IMG/VR virus record: IMGVR_UViG_2660238126_000001
Location: 1 to 11,469 of that record
Source of the DNA: a virus
Lineage: Duplodnaviria; Heunggongvirae; Uroviricota; Caudoviricetes
Direction: 5' to 3' (one strand)
DNA length: 11,469 nucleotides
The notes under the pieces are model-generated. The model searched no databases. It saw nothing but the letters and a program-made list of their open reading frames with translations, and was not told the origin of the DNA. A program made the position numbers and the translations under genes. The number at the start of each line of letters is the position of its first letter. Within the stretch, counting starts at the first letter, position 1. This document shows, in pieces, positions 1 through 11,469 of the stretch.

Positions 1-329
1 GGTATACGGAACAGTATGGCGTGAAGTGACCTGTGGGGCGAACTGGAATGGACATCACCAAGGACGAAACCTCCTCTCTCTGCAAAGGATAGTTATCCAT
101 CCGGGGCAACCTATACCTTTACCATAACTTCCGGCATAGCCACCTTGCTACAATCAAGGGGTGTTGAAGAAACATCCGTTTCGTGGTGCTTTTTTAGTCT
201 TTTGGGGATTTAAATTCCTATCGATGAACGGGGAGGAGATCTGGCCCTGGATGTTACCAACCGATCCCCGCAGACATTTGCTTTCAGAACAGTCTGAAAT
301 ATCAGTAATATCTGCAACAGGATGCCATT

Positions 330-347
330 CTTGTTTGCACGAACCAT
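330..347 (-). pseudogene. cII: cII 5' remnant: first 6 codons (MVRANK) with lambda-like RBS, then unrelated sequence
   Basis: Reverse complement of 330..360 reads aggaaatacttacat-ATG GTT CGT GCA AAC AA, matching the lambda cII start as I recall it. The downstream translation (NGILLQILLIF...) is low-complexity and not cII-like. Confidence 0.6.
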
Positions 348-426
348 ATGTAAGTATTTCCTTAGATAACAATTGATTGAATGTATGCAAATAAATGCAT
401 ACACCATAGGTGTGGTTTAATTGGAT

Positions 427-458
427 GCCCTTTTTCAGGGCTGTGATGTGTAAGAGCG
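427..458 (-). promoter_or_regulatory. nutR: nutR (boxA and boxB hairpin) N-utilisation site downstream of cro
   Basis: Minus strand reads cgctcttaca (boxA-like) followed by gccctgaaaaagggc (boxB inverted repeat), located between cro and the cII start as in lambda. Confidence 0.8.
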
Positions 459-465
459 GTGTTAT

Positions 466-675
<210 letters not shown>

Positions 676-690
676 TTAGTACATGCAATT

Positions 691-760
691 ATTATCACCG
701 CTAGAGGTAAAACAGTCAACACGCACGGTGTTAGATATTTATCCCTTGCGGTGATAGATT
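691..760. promoter_or_regulatory. Right operator region: OR1 (693..709), OR2 (717..733), OR3 (740..756), PR (-10 691..696, -35 714..719, minus strand) and PRM (-35 732..737, -10 755..760, plus strand)
   Basis: Three 17-bp sites tatcaccgctagaggta, caacacgcacggtgtta and tatcccttgcggtgata. OR2 and OR3 are identical to lambda as recalled and OR1 differs at one position. PR has ttgact-17-gataat on the cro strand; PRM has tagata-17-tagatt reading into cI, whose ATG at 767 is at the expected leaderless start. Confidence 0.9.
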
Positions 761-763
761 TAA

Positions 764-1480
<717 letters not shown>

Positions 1481-1519
1481 TGAAACCACTTTTATCTACA
1501 ATTTACAGGGCGGTAAACA

Positions 1520-2077
1520 TTGGCAAAAATAGATGATTATCAGCCAAGCCAAGTAGAAGTTGATAAAGTACTTTATTGTAAAAAAATAGTTAACTTTTCT
1601 GGCGTTAAATGGAAACAGAAACCAAGTCGCTCTGATATGTGGCTACAAGCTCATATCATCCCCTTGGATGAGGATTGTATACCTATACAAGGGCTAAAGT
1701 TTGAACTGAAATGGAAACCAGATCAGGATTCAGAACCTGATGACCCGATTTCTTACCCTAAAATAAATATTATTGCTTTCTATCATAACAAGAGGGTTTT
1801 CGCGGTAGATACCTATCACTTTGACAAACACACGAATAGTTACAAGGTCGATCATCCGAAGTACCAAGATATCATTTACGGTGCTCATTACCATGTATAC
1901 TATGAAGAAGCTGGATACTATAGTGATAGAATAGCGTTTCCAATCGAAGATGACATAAACCCAGATGACCTGGTAGGGTATTGGAATTACTTCTGTAAAC
2001 ATCTGAACATAACTTACTCTGGGAGAATACCTTTACCGCTTGAAGATGAGTCGGGGCAAATGGGGTTTGGAATATGA
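1520..2077 (+). CDS. Hypothetical protein A (185 aa), first gene of a two-gene cassette in the rexA position; acidic and rich in Tyr, His and Trp
   Basis: 558-nt ORF starting at TTG 1520, three codons after an in-frame TAA, with agggcgg about 10 nt upstream; the first in-frame ATG is codon 40 at 1637. Co-oriented with cI and visibly more AT-rich than the flanks. No transmembrane segment or recognisable catalytic motif by eye. Confidence 0.7.
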   Translation: MAKIDDYQPSQVEVDKVLYCKKIVNFSGVKWKQKPSRSDMWLQAHIIPLDEDCIPIQGLKFELKWKPDQDSEPDDPISYPKINIIAFYHNKRVFAVDTYHFDKHTNSYKVDHPKYQDIIYGAHYHVYYEEAGYYSDRIAFPIEDDINPDDLVGYWNYFCKHLNITYSGRIPLPLEDESGQMGFGI

Positions 2078-2826
2078 TGTGCTCAACAGTGATCTCACAA
2101 CTAGGTTTCGAATGCCATCCAATAGGCAAGACCTTGAGAATTATCAGTCCATTCACTTACTGTGATGATGGAGAGCATGTCGGTGCCTTTATCCGTGAAG
2201 TCAATGGTAGGTATTTAGTTAGTGACAGATGCGATGCCTTAATGAATATGGAGGCAAGAGGGATCTCGCTTACCAAAAAACGACTTGATGAGATACGACA
2301 ATTACTGCTTAAAGAAGGCGCAGAACTCAATGCTCGAGGAGAAATCATTGCTTGGGCAACAGAAAAGGATGTCGGTGCGATTACATCGAACATAATTAGA
2401 GCTGGTATACTCGCATCAACTTTGTCGTTAGACTGGTATCAGCCAGTTCAAGCTGAAAAGTTTGAAAGTATGGTTATTGATTATCTATATCACACAGAGC
2501 TTAGAGAGGCACTTTCTCTTCGTGAAAACGTATATGGCTTGAGTGGACATCAAATTACCGTCCCTGTAACAATAAAAACCGACATACCTAAATACGTTTT
2601 TACATCAAGCGTGAAACACGGAGGAAGCTGGAATAGTGCTTACTCATTGCTTGGGAAACTAATTGATCTTAAAGCTTCAAGTGAGGAGTATAACAACAGA
2701 TTTGTTGTTATAGACAGCGAAGCAATTGGTGATCAAATGCAACAACTCTCCTTACTCTTCCATGAATCAAGCCAAGTTCTACCATTCTCCAAAAGAGAGA
2801 CTTGGATTAAGAGACTTGCAGCATAA
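2074..2826 (+). CDS. Hypothetical protein B (250 aa), second gene of the cassette in the rexB position; soluble, with an N-terminal Cys/His cluster
   Basis: ATG 2074 overlaps the TGA stop of gene A (aatATGAtg), indicating translational coupling. 753-nt ORF ending at TAA 2824..2826, immediately followed by an intrinsic terminator. No lambda counterpart recognised. Confidence 0.8.
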   Translation: MMCSTVISQLGFECHPIGKTLRIISPFTYCDDGEHVGAFIREVNGRYLVSDRCDALMNMEARGISLTKKRLDEIRQLLLKEGAELNARGEIIAWATEKDVGAITSNIIRAGILASTLSLDWYQPVQAEKFESMVIDYLYHTELREALSLRENVYGLSGHQITVPVTIKTDIPKYVFTSSVKHGGSWNSAYSLLGKLIDLKASSEEYNNRFVVIDSEAIGDQMQQLSLLFHESSQVLPFSKRETWIKRLAA

Positions 2827-2831
2827 TACAA

Positions 2832-2857
2832 CCCGGCCTCAGCGCCGGGTTTTCTTT
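2832..2857 (+). terminator. Intrinsic terminator (tImm-like) closing the PRM immunity transcript
   Basis: cccggc-ctcagc-gccggg hairpin followed by ttttcttt. Sequence from here rightward to OL resembles the lambda rexB-distal / tImm region as I recall it. Confidence 0.8.
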
Positions 2858-3014
2858 GCCTCACGATCGCCCCACCTAAAAACACATAACCAATTGTATT
2901 TATTGGAAAATAAATAGATACAACTCACTAAACAACGCAATTCTGATCTCTCCTTACATCGCCGAGGCAATACACTCACTCGAAAAAATAAATCCATATA
3001 AAAAACATACAGAT

Positions 3015-3077
3015 AACCATTTGCGGTGATAAAATATCTCTAGCGGTGTTGACACAAATACCACTAGCGGTGATACT
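3015..3077 (+). promoter_or_regulatory. Left operator region OL3 (3015..3031), OL2 (3035..3051), OL1 (3059..3075) with PL promoter (-35 ttgaca 3049..3054, -10 gatact 3072..3077)
   Basis: Sites aaccatttgcggtgata, tatctctagcggtgttg and taccactagcggtgata. ttgaca-17-gatact reads rightward into nutL and N. Confidence 0.9.
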
Positions 3078-3117
3078 TAGCTCGTCAGCAGGACGCACTA
3101 ACCACCATTGAAGGTGA

Positions 3118-3148
3118 GGCTCTTAAAAATTTAGCCCTGAAGAAGGGC
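3118..3148 (+). promoter_or_regulatory. nutL: nutL (boxA ggctcttaa and boxB gccctgaagaagggc)
   Basis: boxA-like 9-mer followed by a perfect boxB hairpin sequence, about 45 nt downstream of the PL -10. Confidence 0.85.
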
Positions 3149-3258
3149 AGCATTCAAAGCAGAAAGCTTTGAGTAGCGCGAAATGCAGCTGCAAGACAGC
3201 AACCGTGGGGATAAGCATCACGGCGCGTTACTCAAAGCTAACTGACAGGAGAATCCAG

Positions 3259-3582
3259 ATGGATGCACAAACACGCCGCCGCGAACGTCGCGCAGAGAAA
3301 CAGGCTCAATGGAAAGCAGCAAATCCCCTGTTGGTTGGGGTAAGCGCAAAACCAGTTAACCGCCCTATTCTCTCGCTGAATCGCAAACCGAAATCACGAG
3401 TAGAAAGCGCACTGAATCCGATAGACCTTACAGTGCTGGCTGAATACCACGAACAGATTGAAAGCAACCTGCAACGTATTGAGCGCAAGAATCAGCGCAC
3501 ATGGTACAGCAAGCCTGGCGAACGCGGCATAACATGCAGTGGACGCCAGAAAATTAAGGGAAAATCGATTCCTCTTATCTAG
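3259..3582 (+). CDS. N: Antitermination protein N (107 aa)
   Basis: Translation MDAQTRRRERRAEKQAQWKAANPLL...KGKSIPLI with the arginine-rich motif, preceded by RBS aggagaatccag-ATG. The track's longer 3169 start is a TTG extension and is rejected. Confidence 0.96.
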   Translation: MDAQTRRRERRAEKQAQWKAANPLLVGVSAKPVNRPILSLNRKPKSRVESALNPIDLTVLAEYHEQIESNLQRIERKNQRTWYSKPGERGITCSGRQKIKGKSIPLI

Positions 3583-4137
3583 TTACTTAGATATTGGCCT
3601 TGGCTTTATCTCAATATTATATGGATCATAGCTGGCAACTAATTCAGTCCAGTAAATATCCTCAATAGGGAATAATATATGCTTCCCGTTCCATCGGGAA
3701 AAAGTTTTGTTCAACACACCAAGCTCAATCAACTCACTAATGTATGGGAATTGTTTTGATGTAACCACATACTTCCTGCCTTCATTAAGGGCTGCGCACA
3801 AAACCATAGATTGCTCTTCTGTAAGGTTTTGAATTACCGATCGCACTTTATCGTTTTGCATCTTAATGCGTTTTCTTAGCTTAAATCGCTTATATCTGGC
3901 GCTGGCAATAGCTGATAATCGATGCACATTAATTGCTAGCGAAAATGCAAGAGCAAAGACGAAAACATGCCACACATGAGGAATACCGATTCTCTCATTA
4001 ACATATTCAGGCCAGTTATCTGGGCTTAAAAGCAGAAGTCCAACCCAGATAACGATCATATACATGGTTCTCTCCAGAGGTTCATTACTGAACACTCGTC
4101 CGAGAATAACGAGTGGATCCATTTCTATACTCATCAA
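3583..4137 (-). CDS. sieB: Superinfection exclusion protein B (184 aa), membrane protein
   Basis: Translation MMSIEMDPLVILGRVFSNEPLERTMYMIVIWVGLLLLSPDNWPEY... matches lambda SieB from memory. It has hydrophobic N-terminal helices and is convergent with N. Confidence 0.92.
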   Translation of the reverse strand: MMSIEMDPLVILGRVFSNEPLERTMYMIVIWVGLLLLSPDNWPEYVNERIGIPHVWHVFVFALAFSLAINVHRLSAIASARYKRFKLRKRIKMQNDKVRSVIQNLTEEQSMVLCAALNEGRKYVVTSKQFPYISELIELGVLNKTFSRWNGKHILFPIEDIYWTELVASYDPYNIEIKPRPISK

Positions 4138-4261
4138 ACTGTAGGGGTTGTAATAGTTTATCCGATTTCTCGCTGTAGGGGTACACGAGAACCACCGAGC
4201 CTGATGTGGTTAAAAGACAGGCACAATCTTTACTACCGCAATCCACTATTTAAGGTGATAT

Positions 4262-4348
4262 ATGGAAGAAGAATTTGAAGAGTTCGAAGAGCATCCGCAG
4301 GATGTAATGGAACAGTACCAGGACTATCCGTATGACTACGACTATTGA
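4262..4348 (+). CDS. Small acidic ORF (28 aa, MEEEFEEFEEHPQDVMEQYQDYPYDYDY), lambda orf28-like
   Basis: ATG 4262 with upstream taaggtga; overlaps the ral start. Its position between sieB and ral matches lambda orf28 as recalled. Below the length cut-off of the ORF track. Confidence 0.5.
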   Translation: MEEEFEEFEEHPQDVMEQYQDYPYDYDY

Positions 4349-4511
4349 TAAGAATCAATGGTGTGGACAATTCAAGCGATGCAATGGATGCAAGCTGCAA
4401 TCGGAATGCATGGTTAAGCCTGAAGAAATGTTTCCTGTAATGGAAGATGGGAAATATGTCGATAAATGGGCAATACGAACGACGGCAATGATTGCCAGAG
4501 AACTTGGTTAA
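4332..4511 (+). CDS. ral: Restriction alleviation protein Ral, ending early at TAA (59 aa); the frame continues QNNKAA to TGA at 4530..4532
   Basis: Translation MTTTIDKNQWCGQFKRCNGCKLQSECMVKPEEMFPVMEDGKYVDKWAIRTTAMIARELG*. Lambda Ral is 66 aa as I recall, and 59 + 7 in-frame codons gives 66. Confidence 0.8.
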   Translation: MTTTIDKNQWCGQFKRCNGCKLQSECMVKPEEMFPVMEDGKYVDKWAIRTTAMIARELG

Positions 4512-4668
4512 CAGAACAACAAAGCTGCCTGATAGTGGCCTTTATTTTTGGCATAAATAACAGAATAAACACTGCACTGTGTATTCATTCCAACGAGTGA
4601 ATACACGGAGCAATGTCGCTCGTAACTAAACAGGAGCCGACTTGTTCTGATTATTGGAAATCTTCTTT

Positions 4669-4694
4669 GCCCTCCAGTGTGAGGGCGATTTTTT
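4669..4694 (+). terminator. Intrinsic terminator-like hairpin upstream of ea10 (tL-type, presumably read through under N antitermination)
   Basis: gccctc-cagtgt-gagggc stem-loop followed by gatttttta. Confidence 0.55.
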
Positions 4695-4714
4695 ATCTAT
4701 GAGGATATGAACAG

Positions 4715-5083
4715 ATGTCAAACATCAAAAAATACATCATTGATTACGACTGGAAAGCATCAATAGAAATTGAAATCGACCATGACGTAATGACAGAGGA
4801 AAAACTTCACCAGATTAATAATTTCTGGTCAGACTCTGAATACCGACTCAATAAACACGGCTCTGTATTAAATGCTGTATTAATCATGCTGGCGCAACAT
4901 GCTCTGCTTATAGCAATTTCAAGCGACTTAAATGCATATGGTGTTGTGTGTGAGTTCGACTGGAATGATGGAAATGGTCAGGAAGGATGGCCTCCAATGG
5001 ATGGTAGCGAAGGAATAAGAATTACCGATATCGATACATCAGGAATATTTGATTCAGATGATATGACTATCAAAGCCGCCTGA
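4715..5083 (+). CDS. ea10: Ea10 protein (122 aa)
   Basis: Translation MSNIKKYIIDYDWKASIEIEIDHDV...DSDDMTIKAA, in the lambda ea10 position between ral and cIII. Confidence 0.85.
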   Translation: MSNIKKYIIDYDWKASIEIEIDHDVMTEEKLHQINNFWSDSEYRLNKHGSVLNAVLIMLAQHALLIAISSDLNAYGVVCEFDWNDGNGQEGWPPMDGSEGIRITDIDTSGIFDSDDMTIKAA

Positions 5084-5155
5084 GCGCGGCGTTACCGCAT
5101 ACCAATAACGCTTCACTCGAGGCGTTTTTCGTTATGTATAAATAAGGAGCACACC

Positions 5156-5320
5156 ATGCAATATGCCATTGCAGGGTGGCCTGTTGCTGGCTGCCCTTCC
5201 GAATCTTTACTTGAACGAATCACCCGTAAATTACGTGACGGATGGAAACGCCTTATCGACATACTTAATCAGCCAGGAGTCCCAAAAAATGGATCAAACA
5301 CTTATGGCTATCCAGACTAA
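5156..5320 (+). CDS. cIII: CIII (54 aa), FtsH inhibitor that stabilises CII
   Basis: Translation [54 protein letters not shown] with RBS aaggag upstream. The track ORF 5163..5432 is a different frame. Confidence 0.9.
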   Translation: MQYAIAGWPVAGCPSESLLERITRKLRDGWKRLIDILNQPGVPKNGSNTYGYPD

Positions 5321-5432
5321 ATTCACTATCGCCACTTTTATTGGCGATGAAAAGATGTTTCGTGAGGCCGTCGACGCTTATAAAAAATGGATATTAATAC
5401 TGAAACTGAGATCAAGCAAAAGCATTCACTAA
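5289..5432 (+). CDS. kil: Kil (47 aa), host cell-division inhibitor
   Basis: Translation [47 protein letters not shown]. Overlaps the cIII 3' end and the gam 5' end as in lambda. Confidence 0.85.
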
Positions 5433-5803
5433 CCCCCTTTCCTGTTTTCCTAATCAGCCCGGCATTTCGCGGGCGATATTTTCACAGCTATTTCAGGAGT
5501 TCAGCCATGAACGCTTATTACATTCAGGATCGTCTTGAGGCTCAGAGCTGGACGCGTCACTACCAGCAGCTCGCCCGTGAAGAGAAAGAGGCAGAACTGG
5601 CAGACGACATGGAAAAAAGCCTGCCCCAGCACCTGTTTGAATCGCTATGCATCGATCATTTGCAACGCCACGGGGCCAGCAAAAAAGCCATTACCCGTGC
5701 GTTTGATGACGATGTTGAGTTTCAGGAGCGCATGGCAGAACACATCCGGTACATGGTTGAAACCATTGCTCACCACCAGGTTGATATTGATTCAGAGGTA
5801 TAA
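5387..5803 (+). CDS. gam: Gam (138 aa), RecBCD inhibitor
   Basis: Translation [22 protein letters not shown]... with internal Met ([15 protein letters not shown]...) corresponding to GamS, ending ...[10 protein letters not shown]. Confidence 0.95.
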
Positions 5804-5808
5804 AACGG

Positions 5809-6594
5809 ATGAGTACAGCACTCGCAACGCTGGCTGGGAAGCTGGCTGAACGTGTCGGCATGGATTCTGTCGACCCACAGGAACTGATCACCACTCTTCG
5901 CCAGACGGCATTTAAAGGTGATGCCAGCGATGCGCAGTTCATCGCATTGTTGATCGTCGCCAACCAGTACGGCCTTAATCCGTGGACGAAAGAAATTTAC
6001 GCCTTCCCTGACAAGCAGAACGGCATCGTTCCGGTGGTGGGCGTTGATGGCTGGTCCCGTATCATCAATGAAAACCAGCAGTTTGATGGCATGGACTTTG
6101 AGCAGGACAATGAATCATGTACATGCCGGATTTACCGCAAGGACCGTAATCATCCGATCTGCGTTACCGAGTGGATGGATGAATGCCGCCGCGAACCATT
6201 CAAAACCCGCGAAGGCAGAGAAATCACCGGACCGTGGCAGTCGCATCCCAAACGGATGTTACGGCATAAAGCCATGATTCAGTGTGCCCGTCTGGCCTTC
6301 GGATTTGCTGGTATCTATGACAAGGATGAAGCCGAGCGCATTGTCGAAAATACTGCATACACTGCAGAACGTCAGCCGGAACGCGACATCACTCCGGTTA
6401 ACGATGAAACCATGCAGGAGATTAACACTCTGCTGATCGCCCTGGATAAAACATGGGATGACGACTTATTGCCGCTCTGTTCCCAGATATTTCGCCGCGA
6501 CATTCGCGCATCGTCAGAACTGACACAGGCCGAAGCAGTGAAAGCTCTTGGATTCCTGAAACAGAAAGCCACTGAGCAGAAGGTGGCAGCATGA
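5809..6594 (+). CDS. bet: Bet / Red-beta single-strand annealing protein (261 aa)
   Basis: Translation [68 protein letters not shown]... matches lambda Bet from memory. Stop overlaps the exo start (ATGA). Confidence 0.97.
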
Positions 6595-7271
6595 CACCGG
6601 ACATTATCCTGCAGCGTGCCGGGATCGACGTGAGAGCTGTCGAACAGGGAGATGATGCGTGGCACAAATTACGGCTCGGCGTCATCACAGCTTCAGAAGT
6701 TCATAACGTAATAGCAAAACCCCGCTCCGGAAAAAAGTGGCCTGACATGAAAATGTCCTACTTCCACACCCTGCTGGCTGAGGTTTGCACCGGTGTGGCT
6801 CCGGAAGTTAATGCTAAGGCGCTGGCCTGGGGAAAACAGTACGAGAACGACGCCAGAGCCCTGTTTGAGTTTACTTCCGGCGTGAATGTTACTGAATCCC
6901 CGATCATCTATCGCGACGAAAGTATGCGCACCGCCTGCTCTCCCGATGGTTTATGCAGTGACGGCAACGGCCTTGAGCTGAAATGCCCGTTTACCTCCCG
7001 GGATTTCATGAAATTCCGGCTCGGTGGTTTCGAGGCCATAAAATCGGCTTACATGGCCCAGGTGCAGTACAGCATGTGGGTGACGCGAAAAGATGCCTGG
7101 TACTTTGCCAACTATGACCCACGAATGAAGCGTGAAGGCCTGCATTATGTCGTGGTTGAGCGGGATGAAAAGTACATGGCGAGTTTTGACGAGATGGTGC
7201 CGGAGTTCATCGAAAAAATGGACGAGGCACTGGCTGAAATTGGTTTTGTATTTGGGGAGCAATGGCGATGA
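6591..7271 (+). CDS. exo: Exo / Red-alpha 5'-3' exonuclease (226 aa)
   Basis: Translation [65 protein letters not shown]...EQWR matches lambda Exo from memory. Confidence 0.97.
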
Positions 7272-7450
7272 AGCATCCTCACGATAATATCCGGGTAGGC
7301 GCGATCACTTTCGTCTACTCCGTTACAAAGCGAGGCTGGGTATTTCCCGGCCTTTCTGTTATCAGAAATCCACTGATAGCACAGCGGCTGGCTGAGGAGA
7401 TAAATAATAAACGGGGGGCTGTATGCACAAAGCATCTCCTGTTGAGTTAA
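7262..7450 (+). CDS. Small ORF, lambda orf60a-like (62 aa from the first ATG; 60 aa if started at the second Met at 7268)
   Basis: Translation [31 protein letters not shown]...; overlaps the exo stop, in the orf60a position. Confidence 0.75.
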
Positions 7451-7614
7451 GAACGAGTATCGAGATGGCACATAGCCTCGCTCAAATTGGAGTCAGGTTT
7501 GTGCCAATACCAGTAGAAACAGACGAAGAATTTCACACGTTAGCCGCATCCCTTTCACAAAAGCTGGAAATGATGGTGGCGAAAGCAGAAGCAGATGAGA
7601 GAGACCAGGTATGA
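7423..7614 (+). CDS. Small ORF, lambda orf63-like (63 aa)
   Basis: Translation [63 protein letters not shown], in the orf63 position. Confidence 0.75.
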   Translation: MHKASPVELRTSIEMAHSLAQIGVRFVPIPVETDEEFHTLAASLSQKLEMMVAKAEADERDQV

Positions 7615-7690
7615 CAACCACTGAATGCATTTTTCTGGCAGCGGGCTTCATATTCTGTGTGCTTATGCTTGCCGACATGGGGCTTGTTCA

Positions 7691-7906
7691 ATGACACCTC
7701 AGCAAGAAAACGCCCTTCGCAGCATTGCCCGTCAGGCTAATTCTGAAATCAAAAAAGCCAGACAGCAGTTTCCGGATAAAAACGTCGATGACATTTGCCG
7801 TAGCGTACTAAAGAAGCACCGCGAAACGGTAACGCTGATGGGATTCACACCGACTCATTTAAGCCTGGCGATCGGCATGTTGAACGGCGTCTTTAAGGAA
7901 CGGTGA
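7691..7906 (+). CDS. Small ORF, lambda orf61-like (71 aa from ATG 7691)
   Basis: Translation MTPQQENALRSIARQANSEIKKARQQFPDKNVDDICRSVLKKHRETVTLMGFTPTHLSLAIGMLNGVFKER with gggg about 10 nt upstream. The track's 7625 start would read through a hydrophobic leader and is less likely. Confidence 0.65.
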   Translation: MTPQQENALRSIARQANSEIKKARQQFPDKNVDDICRSVLKKHRETVTLMGFTPTHLSLAIGMLNGVFKER

Positions 7907-7928
7907 ACATGAAAAGCAAAATCATCAG

Positions 7929-7949
7929 GGAGCTACAGGCTCCTTTTTT
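7929..7949 (+). terminator. Weak intrinsic terminator-like hairpin
   Basis: ggagc-tacag-gctcc followed by tttttt. Only a 5-bp stem. Confidence 0.4.
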
Positions 7950-8004
7950 ATTATTCGCATTCACCCTCAAGCGTATTAACCAACAATTCAGGGATTAATG
8001 AAAG

Positions 8005-8226
8005 ATGGCAGACATAATTGATTCAGCATCAGAAATTGAAGAATTACAGCGCAACACAGCAATAAAAATGCGCCGCCTGAACCACCAGGCTATATCTGCC
8101 ACTCATTGTTGTGAGTGTGGCGATCCGATAGATGAACGAAGACGACTGGCCGTTCAGGGTTGTCGGACTTGTGCAAGTTGCCAGGAGGATCTGGAACTTA
8201 TCAGTAAACAGAGAGGTTCGAAGTGA
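8005..8226 (+). CDS. DksA/TraR-family C4 zinc-finger protein (73 aa), lambda orf73-like
   Basis: CxxC...CxxC spacing in ...HCCECGDPIDERRRLAVQGCRTCASCQEDLE..., typical of TraR-type proteins. Length and position match lambda orf73 as I recall it. Confidence 0.8.
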   Translation: MADIIDSASEIEELQRNTAIKMRRLNHQAISATHCCECGDPIDERRRLAVQGCRTCASCQEDLELISKQRGSK

Positions 8227-8474
8227 GCGTAATTCACTCTCAGGCACTGCGTGAAGCGGCAGAGCAGGCAATGCATGACAACTGGGGATTTGACGCGGAC
8301 CTTTTCCATGAGCTGGTAACACCATCGATTGTGCTGACACTGCTGGATGAACGGGAAAGAAACCAGCAGTACATCAAACGCCGCGACCAGGAGAACGAGG
8401 ATATTGCGCTAACGGTGAGGAAACTGCGTGTTGAGCTGGAGACAGCAAAAATCAAAACTCAACGAGCAGCGTGA
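8223..8474 (+). CDS. Hypothetical coiled-coil-like protein (83 aa) in the ea22 position, terminated by TGA with a further open in-frame stretch downstream
   Basis: ATG (GTG?) at 8223 overlaps the orf73 stop. The translation is charged and helical-looking (...ERERNQQYIKRRDQENEDIALTVRKLRVELETAKIKTQRAA). I cannot confirm homology to Ea22. Confidence 0.55.
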   Translation: MSVIHSQALREAAEQAMHDNWGFDADLFHELVTPSIVLTLLDERERNQQYIKRRDQENEDIALTVRKLRVELETAKIKTQRAA

Positions 8475-8772
8475 GTAGAAGGTGTTATCTCGGATGGAAG
8501 TAAGCGTATTGCTGAACTGGAGGCCTGGGTTGAATACACAAGAGCTGCATACGTAAGAGCAAAAGACAAGGGAGATTTGATCAGAGTTATTACCCGACAA
8601 CCAACGGGATTTTACGCTTACGTACCATGTAATTAGGAATCCTTGAAGTGGCAGCCTAACTGCGGATACACTGAAATGGCGATTTGGTAACATGTTTCGC
8701 ACAAGGCTGTTACTACGCTTAAAGATAATCAGCCATGATTAAACGCTTTGTAAAAAGTAAAAGGAAATTACA

Positions 8773-9387
8773 ATGAAAAAATCAATACTAATTTTAGGGC
8801 TTACGTTAATTGTCTCATCTCAAATACCATCGGCAATGGCAAAAAATGAATCAAGACTTTGGGTTGTTGTTGATCGAACGGAAAGACATACCTGCCCTTC
8901 AAGTAAATGTGGAGTGGCTGGGAAACTATTTTTCAGGGAAGGCGTAGATTTTCTAGAAAAAAAAGGTGAATGGGTTCGTATAACTGAGCCATATTCAGCC
9001 TCATGTGTGGGAGGGGAAAGCGAATATATTAAAGAAGGTAATAAATCCTGCACAAGAAAAAACGGAATCGTCAATGGCAAGTTTTCAGAATGGGTTAAAC
9101 TTAGTGATCTTAGCAGTGAAAGGCCATCAGATCCTGCTGAAAATGCGAGCGGAGATGATACTTTAATCAAAGGATCTGATGACTACCGTATATACAAAAA
9201 AGAGTTTTCTTCGGCAGCTAGGAAGTTAATAAACGAAGGGGTCTGCACGGAAAGCGACTTTAAGGAAATCGGAGGGTGGATGGCATCAAGCAATAAGGGG
9301 AAAAACATCTATTTCACATATTGCGGAGGAATGACGTTGTCGAACAGAATATACCTAGACGTTAAAAGTGGAAAGACTTTTAGATAA
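8773..9387 (+). CDS. Secreted/periplasmic protein (204 aa) with a Sec signal peptide and an SH3b-like N-terminal region; AT-rich moron
   Basis: Signal peptide MKKSILILGLTLIVSSQIPSAMA followed by KNE. SH3b-like pattern in RLWVVVDRTERHTCPSSKCGVAGKLFFREGVDFLEKKGEWVRITEP. Seven Cys in the mature part. RBS aaggaaa precedes the ATG. Not part of lambda. Confidence 0.75.
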   Translation: MKKSILILGLTLIVSSQIPSAMAKNESRLWVVVDRTERHTCPSSKCGVAGKLFFREGVDFLEKKGEWVRITEPYSASCVGGESEYIKEGNKSCTRKNGIVNGKFSEWVKLSDLSSERPSDPAENASGDDTLIKGSDDYRIYKKEFSSAARKLINEGVCTESDFKEIGGWMASSNKGKNIYFTYCGGMTLSNRIYLDVKSGKTFR

Positions 9388-9458
9388 TATGATATTACCA
9401 ATGACAGTATTAATTTAATGCCTCCATAGAATTATCTCTAGGAAGTATGTATAAGAAA

Positions 9459-9492
9459 AGCCCGCACAATGAGCTGCTGCGGGCTTTGTGTT
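9459..9492 (+). terminator. Intrinsic terminator after the secreted-protein gene
   Basis: agcccgca-caatgagctgc-tgcgggct hairpin followed by ttgtgttatt. Confidence 0.6.
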
Positions 9493-9740
9493 ATTCGCCA
9501 TATTTTATGAAGCAAATACGACACTATAGATAATTAAGCGTTGCTGGTTGTCGATTCCTCACTCACTCCTGTTGATGGCTCTCTTCTTGTATGTGCCATT
9601 GAAGGGTAATATCGAGTAAAAAGATACCGGAAGTATCCGCGCCGCCATGATTGTCTTTCTCCTAATGCAGGAAAAGCAGAATGGCTAAATCATCAGCAGA
9701 GCGCAAAGTCGATCAGAGAGCCAAGCAAGCATCATCCGGT

Positions 9741-10019
9741 ATGCGTAAGCTGGAGCTTGTACTTGATGCTCAGGAAATTGAAATGCTGGATCGTAACTGA
9801 GCCACGCGCCGCTTCAGGCATGCGCCTTACGAGTTTGGTGAGTACATCGCGTTACTGAGCCGCCAGGATGATGCACGTGTGCGCTGGCGTATAAAATCGA
9901 TCAGCAGAAAACGTTGCGATAAGTGCGGCGAGAGAGTTCCTGTTAATTCATGCCCGTGTAATGGTGACTCACAATGCTGGGTGACCAAAGGCTGGCACGA
10001 AACAAAATTAATGATATAA
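9741..10019 (+). pseudogene. ea8.5: Ea8.5-like homeodomain/zinc-ribbon protein interrupted by an in-frame TGA at 9798..9800
   Basis: The frame reads MRKLELVLDAQEIEMLDRN*ATRRFRHAPYEFGEYIALLSRQDDARVRWRIKSISRKRCDKCGERVPVNSCPCNGDSQCWVTKGWHETKLMI*. The 72-codon segment after the TGA has no in-frame ATG and carries the Cys cluster. Total length (92 codons) and position match lambda Ea8.5. Confidence 0.5.
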
Positions 10020-10025
10020 ATCTCT

Positions 10026-10037
10026 GTGACATGTCAC
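10026..10037. promoter_or_regulatory. Perfect 12-bp palindrome gtgacatgtcac immediately 5' of the RBS of the 142-aa ORF
   Basis: Exact inverted repeat, followed by ggagg (10038..10042) and ATG 10048. Candidate operator or RNA hairpin. Confidence 0.4.
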
Positions 10038-10047
10038 GGAGGCGGCA

Positions 10048-10476
10048 ATGAAATTAGACCAGCAATATCTAAAAGATCTACTTATCGCATTCGAAAAAAC
10101 TCATGGCCCTGACACGATGCTTAGTGAACTAGAGGATAATGGCTTTAATAGATATGACCAAAATTTTATTTTCCATATGCGATTATTATGCGACTACGAA
10201 TTAATAGTCAGGGTTGATGGAAAACCTGGGTTCGGTCATATAATGTCCAACGAGTTAGGGGAAGGTGTTGGATATAGTTGGATCGAAGTACCACTGAGGT
10301 TGACAGCAAGAGGGCATGATTTTATTGCTGACTTGCGTCAAAAGGAGGTCTGGCAAACTATAAAAACAAACTTTAAGGATGAGGGAATTAGTACACTAAT
10401 AAGTGTTTCAAAATCACTAGCAAAAGGCTTTGCAAGGAAAAAGATAAAAGATATTACAGGAATAGATATTGAATAA
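10048..10476 (+). CDS. Hypothetical cytoplasmic protein (142 aa); AT-rich moron inserted between the ea8.5 and orf55 homologues
   Basis: Strong RBS ggagg 5 nt upstream of the ATG. Translation MKLDQQYLKDLLIAFEKTHGPDTMLSELEDNGFNRYDQNFIFHMRLLCDYELIVRVDG.... Lambda has only a short spacer here as I recall. Confidence 0.8.
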   Translation: MKLDQQYLKDLLIAFEKTHGPDTMLSELEDNGFNRYDQNFIFHMRLLCDYELIVRVDGKPGFGHIMSNELGEGVGYSWIEVPLRLTARGHDFIADLRQKEVWQTIKTNFKDEGISTLISVSKSLAKGFARKKIKDITGIDIE

Positions 10477-10558
10477 TTCTTAGCATCAGCAACTACTGCC
10501 TTTGGTGGAAATTATATCTGAACTCGCTACGGCGAGTTTTGTTTTATGGAGATGATAA

Positions 10559-10726
10559 ATGCACTTCCGAGTCACAGGTGAATGGAATGGAGAACCATTC
10601 AACAGAGTTATCGAAGCAGAGAACATCAATGACTGCTATGACCACTGGATGATATGGGCCCAGATAGCACATGCAGACATAACCAATATTCGAATTGAAG
10701 AACTGAAAGAACACCAAGCCGCCTGA
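10559..10726 (+). CDS. Small ORF, lambda orf55-like (55 aa)
   Basis: Translation MHFRVTGEWNGEPFNRVIEAENINDCYDHWMIWAQIAHADITNIRIEELKEHQAA*, in the position between ea8.5 and xis. Below the length cut-off of the ORF track. Confidence 0.65.
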   Translation: MHFRVTGEWNGEPFNRVIEAENINDCYDHWMIWAQIAHADITNIRIEELKEHQAA

Positions 10727-10738
10727 TGGCGGTTTTTT
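10718..10738 (+). terminator. Intrinsic terminator overlapping the orf55 stop
   Basis: gccgcc-tgat-ggcgg hairpin followed by tttttt. Confidence 0.6.
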
Positions 10739-10765
10739 CTTGCGTGTAATTGCGGAGACTTTGCG

Positions 10766-10984
10766 ATGTACTTGACACTTCAGGAGTGGAACGCTCGCCA
10801 GCGACGCCCAAGAAGCCTTGAAACAGTTCGTCGATGGGTGCGCGAATGCAGGATATTCCCTCCTCCGGTTAAGGATGGAAGAGAATATCTGTTCCACGAA
10901 TCAGCGGTAAAGGTTGACTTAAATCGACCAGTAACAGGTAGCCTTTTGAAGAGGATCAGAAATGGGAAGAAGGCGAAGTCATGA
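10766..10984 (+). CDS. xis: Excisionase Xis (72 aa)
   Basis: Translation MYLTLQEWNARQRRPRSLETVRRWVRECRIFPPPVKDGREYLFHESAVKVDLNRPVTGSLLKRIRNGKKAKS matches lambda Xis from memory. Confidence 0.96.
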   Translation: MYLTLQEWNARQRRPRSLETVRRWVRECRIFPPPVKDGREYLFHESAVKVDLNRPVTGSLLKRIRNGKKAKS

Positions 10985-11175
10985 GCGCCGGGATTTACCC
11001 CCTAACCTTTATATAAGAAACAATGGATATTACTGCTACAGGGACCCAAGGACGGGTAAAGAGTTTGGATTAGGCCGAGACAGGCGAATCGCAATCACTG
11101 AAGCTATACAGGCCAACATTGAGTTATTTTCAGGACACAAACACAAGCCTCTGACAGCGAGNNNCANNAGNGNTN
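10962..11175 (+). pseudogene. int: Integrase Int, N-terminal arm-binding region only (about 71 codons); lambda-like sequence stops after a patch of ambiguous bases
   Basis: Translation MGRRRSHERRDLPPNLYIRNNGYYCYRDPRTGKEFGLGRDRRIAITEAIQANIELFSGHKHKPLTA matches lambda Int from memory and overlaps the xis 3' end. The defined bases within 11161..11175 are consistent with int, but from 11176 the sequence no longer encodes Int and stops at 11211..11213. Confidence 0.8.
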
Positions 11176-11469
11176 ATGTACGAGCTAAATGTTACTCCGT
11201 TAAAATAAATTAGTAACAAACGCCCTATAACGTACTGAAAATTATGCCTGTGATCTAGCGCCAAAAATCAGTATTTCGGCGTGAACTCGCAAAATATTAA
11301 CGATTCAGCCGTGATAGTGGGATAAACACCTTAGAACGCCGGATAAAGACTGATAATTGTCTTCGACGGTCGGGTAAAACGAGACATCGCCCCGGCACGA
11401 ATCACTACTTAACACGGATGGCTTCAGCCCCCGTTTTCACACGAAGGTCGATGCGGCGACCAAATCGTT

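Follow-up and report, generated by a model that had tools for sequence, protein, structure and literature searches.

The window analysed here is an 11,469-bp stretch of DNA that corresponds to the whole of contig CCBV01000177.1 (100% identity between contig locus and window) in the draft assembly GCA_000936365.1, which comprises at least 177 contigs. Because the window is the entire contig, base 1 and base 11,469 are contig ends. Most of its length, the core (positions 331–11177), is a lambdoid early-left region that runs from a truncated cII to a truncated int and is oriented opposite to the standard lambda map. The gene order, supported by Pfam families, is cro, cI, a two-gene cassette in the position of rexAB, N, sieB, ral, kil, gam, bet, exo, xis and the truncated int; cI is located at 767–1480 on the plus strand, as is the remainder of the early-left operon. 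This 10.8-kb core is collinear with lambda 38376–28683 as a single place. The core is most simply explained as a real and unremarkable segment of a lambda/mEp332-like prophage.

At the left side of the core, a lambda-type cro (666–466, minus strand) is followed by a spacer (348–466, minus strand) that contains nutR, the tR1 region and the cII ribosome-binding site and is 100% identical to that of mEp332. Exact motif matches were found on the minus strand for boxA, CGCTCTTA (458–451), for boxB, GCCCTGAAAAAGGGC (441–427), and for the cII Shine-Dalgarno sequence, TAAGGA, together with the start codon (364–345), the cII ATG being at 347. The region thus has the organization of a lambda nutR, tR1 and cII leader, with boxA and boxB on the 3′ side of cro and TAAGGA on the 5′ side of the ATG. 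Over window positions 331–700 the identity is 100% to mEp332 (EF120456.1, PV340541.1), which shares the cro-nutR-tR1-cII start and whose record annotates nutR boxB and cII at the matching stretch, and 97.3% to lambda (NC_001416.1, 38007–38376). The lambda-type homology ends sharply at 330/331. The first-pass annotation had described a lambda-like nutR, tR1, cII ribosome-binding site and cII start followed by an abrupt divergence, and it placed these features correctly.

In contrast to both mEp332 and lambda, the cII reading frame of the window gives way to plasmid DNA after nucleotide 17, and O and P are missing. The remnant, ATGGTTCGTGCAAACAA (331–347, minus strand), consists of five codons and two further nucleotides. 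Of the first six codons of cII, codons 1–5 and the next two nucleotides are of lambda type, and codon 6 remains a lysine (AAG in place of AAA) by coincidence only. Past nucleotide 17, the ungapped identity to lambda cII is 23%, which is at the random level. No intact gene of PF05269 (Phage_CII; ~97 aa, CII fold) follows the leader; the 17 nucleotides are continued in frame into plasmid DNA as a chimeric 45-aa open reading frame (347–210, minus strand; a gene call) without a Pfam match.

In a collection of 15 billion proteins, this 45-aa fusion was found on exactly one contig, CCBV01000177.1, and clusters solely with a 163-aa open reading frame from an ordinary plasmid context. For a 65-aa version of the fusion (407–210), no record was found. 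The 45-aa frame (210–347, minus strand) is also a cluster representative in public protein collections, an example of an apparent assembly artefact passing into databases. The exact cI protein of the contig is recorded in 3,653 collection blocks, and in all 10 of the places listed the identical cI adjoins an intact, 97-aa cII; in most of these places O and P come next, and in the others different phage genes do. The window itself does lack O and P, as had been stated; the absence is trivial, since the contig stops at base 1. The earlier designation of this side as the left end of the prophage was mistaken, in that cII lies in the interior of an integrated prophage.

The 330 bases beyond the break are not the featureless DNA for which they had been taken, but two pieces of IncF plasmid backbone. 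When bases 1–347 were searched against complete E. coli genomes, 2,207 of the 2,317 matching places were on plasmids. The larger piece, adjoining cII, is an unannotated intergenic stretch of IncF plasmids (52–330, 279 bp). Its full 279-bp length is matched at 100% identity by 48 plasmid records belonging to complete E. coli genomes and by 51 PLSDB records; in p120899_76 (NZ_CP025918.1), for example, it occupies 14390–14668 and is flanked by a hypothetical gene and a TetR gene. In this native context the plasmid sequence is unbroken past both end points of the piece.

The smaller piece (1–51) is a fragment of a short DUF1281 allele of IncF plasmids. Ten listed records of IncFIB-type plasmids (e.g., NZ_CP010214.1 and NZ_CP076707.1) contain it without interruption at 100% identity, and 14 plasmid records match it with at least 99% identity. 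In the short-allele plasmids the sequence departs from that of the window after base 51, and no match to 52–330 was found within 3 kb of DUF1281 in those examined. The long DUF1281 allele, which is the common one, matches the window as two segments, 1–38 and 31–51, with the 233 bp between two CTGTGGGG repeats missing. We considered whether the left tip might therefore consist of three pieces, with a jump inside DUF1281 and the mismatches representing sequencing errors, and rejected this reading because 1–51 is contiguous in the short-allele plasmids. The short allele itself, which lacks the 233 bp between the two CTGTGGGG repeats, is unannotated in some IncFIB plasmids (loci ~2616–3497).

In p120899_76, which carries the long DUF1281 allele, the 279-bp piece is located ~2.8 kb from the DUF1281 gene and in the opposite orientation relative to the window. 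Thus, compared with the IncF backbone (p120899_76 and NZ_CP010214.1), both pieces are 100% identical, but in the window they abut bluntly. On this evidence, the left flank is two nonadjacent pieces of IncF backbone, bluntly joined to each other and to cII.

Within the larger piece, a 75-bp sub-repeat (155–229) has a sequence that also occurs beside an IS91-family transposase gene. Two further copies are present in p120899_76 (6729–6803 and 9630–9704), the former starting at the end of a truncated IS66-family transposase annotation and 118 bp beyond the IS91-family transposase gene. The sub-repeat may be a terminal remnant of an IS91-family element, perhaps a solo end that has become scattered through plasmid backbones. 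Since 101 bp separate its outer edge (229) from the cII junction, it cannot account for 330/331, and one-ended transposition of IS91 type was rejected as the cause of the join on the same ground. Several copies of the sub-repeat are found per IncF plasmid, and it is never annotated.

The open reading frames in 1–330 (45, 71 and 78 aa) have no match among the Pfam families, and a sensitive blastn search of 50,697 phage records (E ≤ 10) yielded no cII, O or P match for these bases. The sole phage-record matches in that search were to two tiny records resembling plasmid fragments, apart from chance matches. The entries named ‘Escherichia phage ECO95 1-6-1’ and ‘ECO111 5-P’, 1.9 and 4.5 kb long, correspond to plasmid backbone DNA and are apparently mislabelled. 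As 52–330 is an unannotated stretch, parts of which are present in as many as three copies on an IncF plasmid, a single-strand promoter resembling Frpo/ssi was also considered, the repeated part being only 155–229; we rejected it because the predicted folding is no better than that of shuffled sequences (z = 0.32 and 0.15 for the two strands) and no Rfam match was found in 52–330.

At the right side of the core, int is cut after ~72 codons. All eight Ns of the contig are located here, inside int and just before the next junction, within 14 nt (11162–11175). The unambiguous bases among them all agree with the continuation of int. The Ns are an indirect sign of a poorly supported consensus at that spot. 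A more specific interpretation, in which they mark the positions at which int and the chromosomal sequence disagree, as expected of an overlay of the two, was rejected because the correlation is imperfect, and the claim is accordingly limited to poor consensus support.

The Ns are followed by core chromosomal DNA from the pntA-ydgH intergenic region (11178–11414, ~237 bp, 98–100% match). The chromosomal match spans 11176–11414, its first two bases (AT) being common to int. This piece is present in 5,425 of 5,426 complete E. coli genomes and belongs to core chromosome without known mobility; after 11414 the chromosome continues differently from the window. The last 55 bp of the contig (11415–11469, minus strand) are 100% identical to lambda 14897–14843, which covers the overlap of tail genes K and I, and the phage sequence preceding the equivalent of 11415 differs from that in the window. 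Some genomes match for 6 nt beyond 11414; this short extension was read as chance, and 11414 was rejected as a natural insertion point. In the one genome examined in this respect, DETEC-S560, an IS4-family element is annotated ~100 bp beyond the 11414 match.

The two tips of the contig are thus alike, each having ~300 bases from two short, unrelated fragments, and all four junctions are within 330 nt of one contig end or 292 nt of the other. The joins at 51/52, 330/331 and 11414/11415 are blunt, with no microhomology, and that between int and the chromosome (~11177) has 2 nt (AT). No IS end, target duplication, or att site or core was found at any of the four junctions, and each source sequence runs unbroken across the break point in its native context. 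Truncation by an IS or transposon would place an element terminus at the break, whereas the plasmid sequence is continuous across position 330 in 48–51 plasmids. Neither does the break have the features of attL or attR: it is inside cII, int on the far side is cut at about codon 72, and the two share no core.

No record spanning any of the junctions was found among 5,426 complete E. coli genomes, PLSDB and INPHARED. In exact searches, a 37-mer across 330/331 is absent from GTDB representatives, IMG/VR and the JGI metagenomes, a 35-mer across 51/52 is absent from GTDB representatives and the JGI metagenomes, and a 29-mer across 11414/11415 is absent from IMG/VR.

Taken together, these observations make it very probable that cII is interrupted by a chimeric join at a draft-contig tip, i.e., an artefact of the assembly or library, and not a feature of the genome. 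The joins lie near the contig ends, they connect unlinked sources (a plasmid at two loci, the core chromosome and phage tail genes) without any signature of recombination, and they are absent from independent genomes. Chimeric or misjoined contig ends are a well-known general class of artefact in short-read drafts, and the window fits this class in having short fragments from different replicons of one cell at both tips, ambiguous bases at a join and unique junctions. Such ends are usually confirmed by read coverage, whereas the present assignment is drawn from the sequence itself. Earlier, a deletion or rearrangement endpoint and an assembly join had been named side by side as explanations of the break; the latter is favored by the patchwork tips and the unique junction in a window that is a whole draft contig, and the former is disfavored.

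As to how such ends could arise, clean assembly would have ended on reaching sequence that recurs among lambdoid prophages, namely cII-O-P to the left of the core and int to its right, and the assembly would have added ~300 bases to each tip, from two short, unrelated fragments of the same cell. Most likely, either the contig end was overhung by a chimeric read or fragment that had formed in library preparation through ligation of blunt ends, or a scaffolder or gap-closer glued on very short contigs. The remainder of cII, O and P would then be on other contigs of the same assembly. E. coli lacks classical nonhomologous end joining, which makes a series of adjacent blunt joins improbable in vivo; in vitro they form easily.

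The main competing possibility is that the contig is faithful and records a real recombinant, in which an IncF plasmid and a lambdoid prophage underwent illegitimate recombination inside cII, either with capture of an early-region fragment on the plasmid or with integration of the plasmid into the prophage. Both left pieces are IncF backbone at 100% identity, that is, from the same kind of replicon, and 330/331 itself carries no N. In addition, natural IncF plasmids do carry lambda-like segments with xis and int, which makes a junction between plasmid and phage conceivable in principle. Nevertheless, two junctions lie no more than 330 nt from the contig end, the opposite tip is a mirror-image patchwork with Ns, and the int side leads into scraps of chromosome and tail genes rather than plasmid DNA. 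Furthermore, the joins are blunt and without IS ends, whereas the one plasmid-borne fragment examined has IS26 a few kb to either side, and the junctions occur in no other genome or plasmid searched. Given, too, how unlikely several adjacent blunt joins are without classical end joining, we regard a recombinant as unlikely. Less likely still is a faithful contig taken as a whole, which would mean a 10.8-kb early region bounded by strings of short segments of plasmid, chromosome and its own tail genes; this would imply repair in bacteria by multiple template switches or filler DNA, with blunt patchwork junctions. If, against expectation, the junctions were real, several fragments would have been joined by their blunt ends in E. 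coli, which would be unusual.

A genuine chromosomal deletion, or an IS-mediated truncation of a defective prophage with its endpoint at codon 6 of cII, is similarly hard to credit. E. coli commonly carries defective lambdoid prophages whose modules are truncated, and the core is otherwise a normal prophage segment, but the flank is of plasmid type (2,207 of 2,317 places), the junction lacks an IS terminus, and the sole IS-related piece (155–229) ends 101 bp away from it; the patchwork at both contig tips also counts against this explanation. The most improbable account, to which we give almost no weight, is that 1–330 is the cII-O region of a related phage, intact but diverged. In its favor, the start of cII is a mosaic region in lambdoid phages, and in HK542, HK244, HK544 and CL707 the homology to the window is lost at base 345. 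In the window, however, the in-frame open reading frame ends after 45 aa with no Pfam match, PF05269 (Phage_CII) included, the identity to lambda cII after nucleotide 17 is 23%, the DNA is 100% identical to plasmid sequence, and 1–330 has no cII or O match in the 50,697 phage records by sensitive blastn. By the blastn, Pfam and identity results, this reading of 1–330, which the first-pass annotation had itself raised, is refuted.

The probable chimeric join at the contig tip is mainly a caution, in that a truncated cII fused to foreign DNA mimics prophage decay or a rearrangement endpoint. Located as it is at the ragged end of its contig, the break should not be taken to indicate a replication-defective prophage, a plasmid-phage hybrid or a 45-aa ‘protein’.

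Within the core, the two-gene cassette in the position of rexA-rexB (1520–2826, plus strand) is directly downstream of cI and encodes proteins of 185 and 250 aa, with a 4-nt overlap between the genes. The two genes match PDC-M24A (E = 5e-4) and PDC-M24B (E = 6e-10), a candidate defence pair in PADLOC, and their Pfam families are DUF6978 (a weak match) and DUF1828. Prophages with an identical cI hold other cassettes at this position, either a pair of 144 and 206 aa or a single gene of 345 aa. This position beside cI looks like a swappable defence slot. A further open reading frame of 204 aa is found in the position of the lambda b region (8773–9387, plus strand); it has an N-terminal sequence resembling a signal peptide and no Pfam or PADLOC match.

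The 204-aa gene is also present in lambda-like segments on IncF plasmids, and window positions 7290–11161, up to the Ns, match several plasmids with 97.9% identity. On the IncF plasmid pABWA45_1 (NZ_CP022155.1, 6001–10743), the one examined, such a segment is located beside dps and a gene for an arsR-family regulator. Its xis and int are intact and IS26 is found a few kb to either side, in contrast to the window, where the joins are mostly blunt and intragenic, without an IS. The same segment matches plasmids of E. coli, Klebsiella and Enterobacter. Some plasmid records look mislabelled: complete lambda genomes (~48.5 kb) appear as ‘plasmids’ under Paenibacillus sonchi, Stenotrophomonas maltophilia and Salmonella enterica, probably through lambda contamination, and the ‘plasmid’ NZ_OL790696.1 is a 4.8-Mb E. 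coli chromosome.
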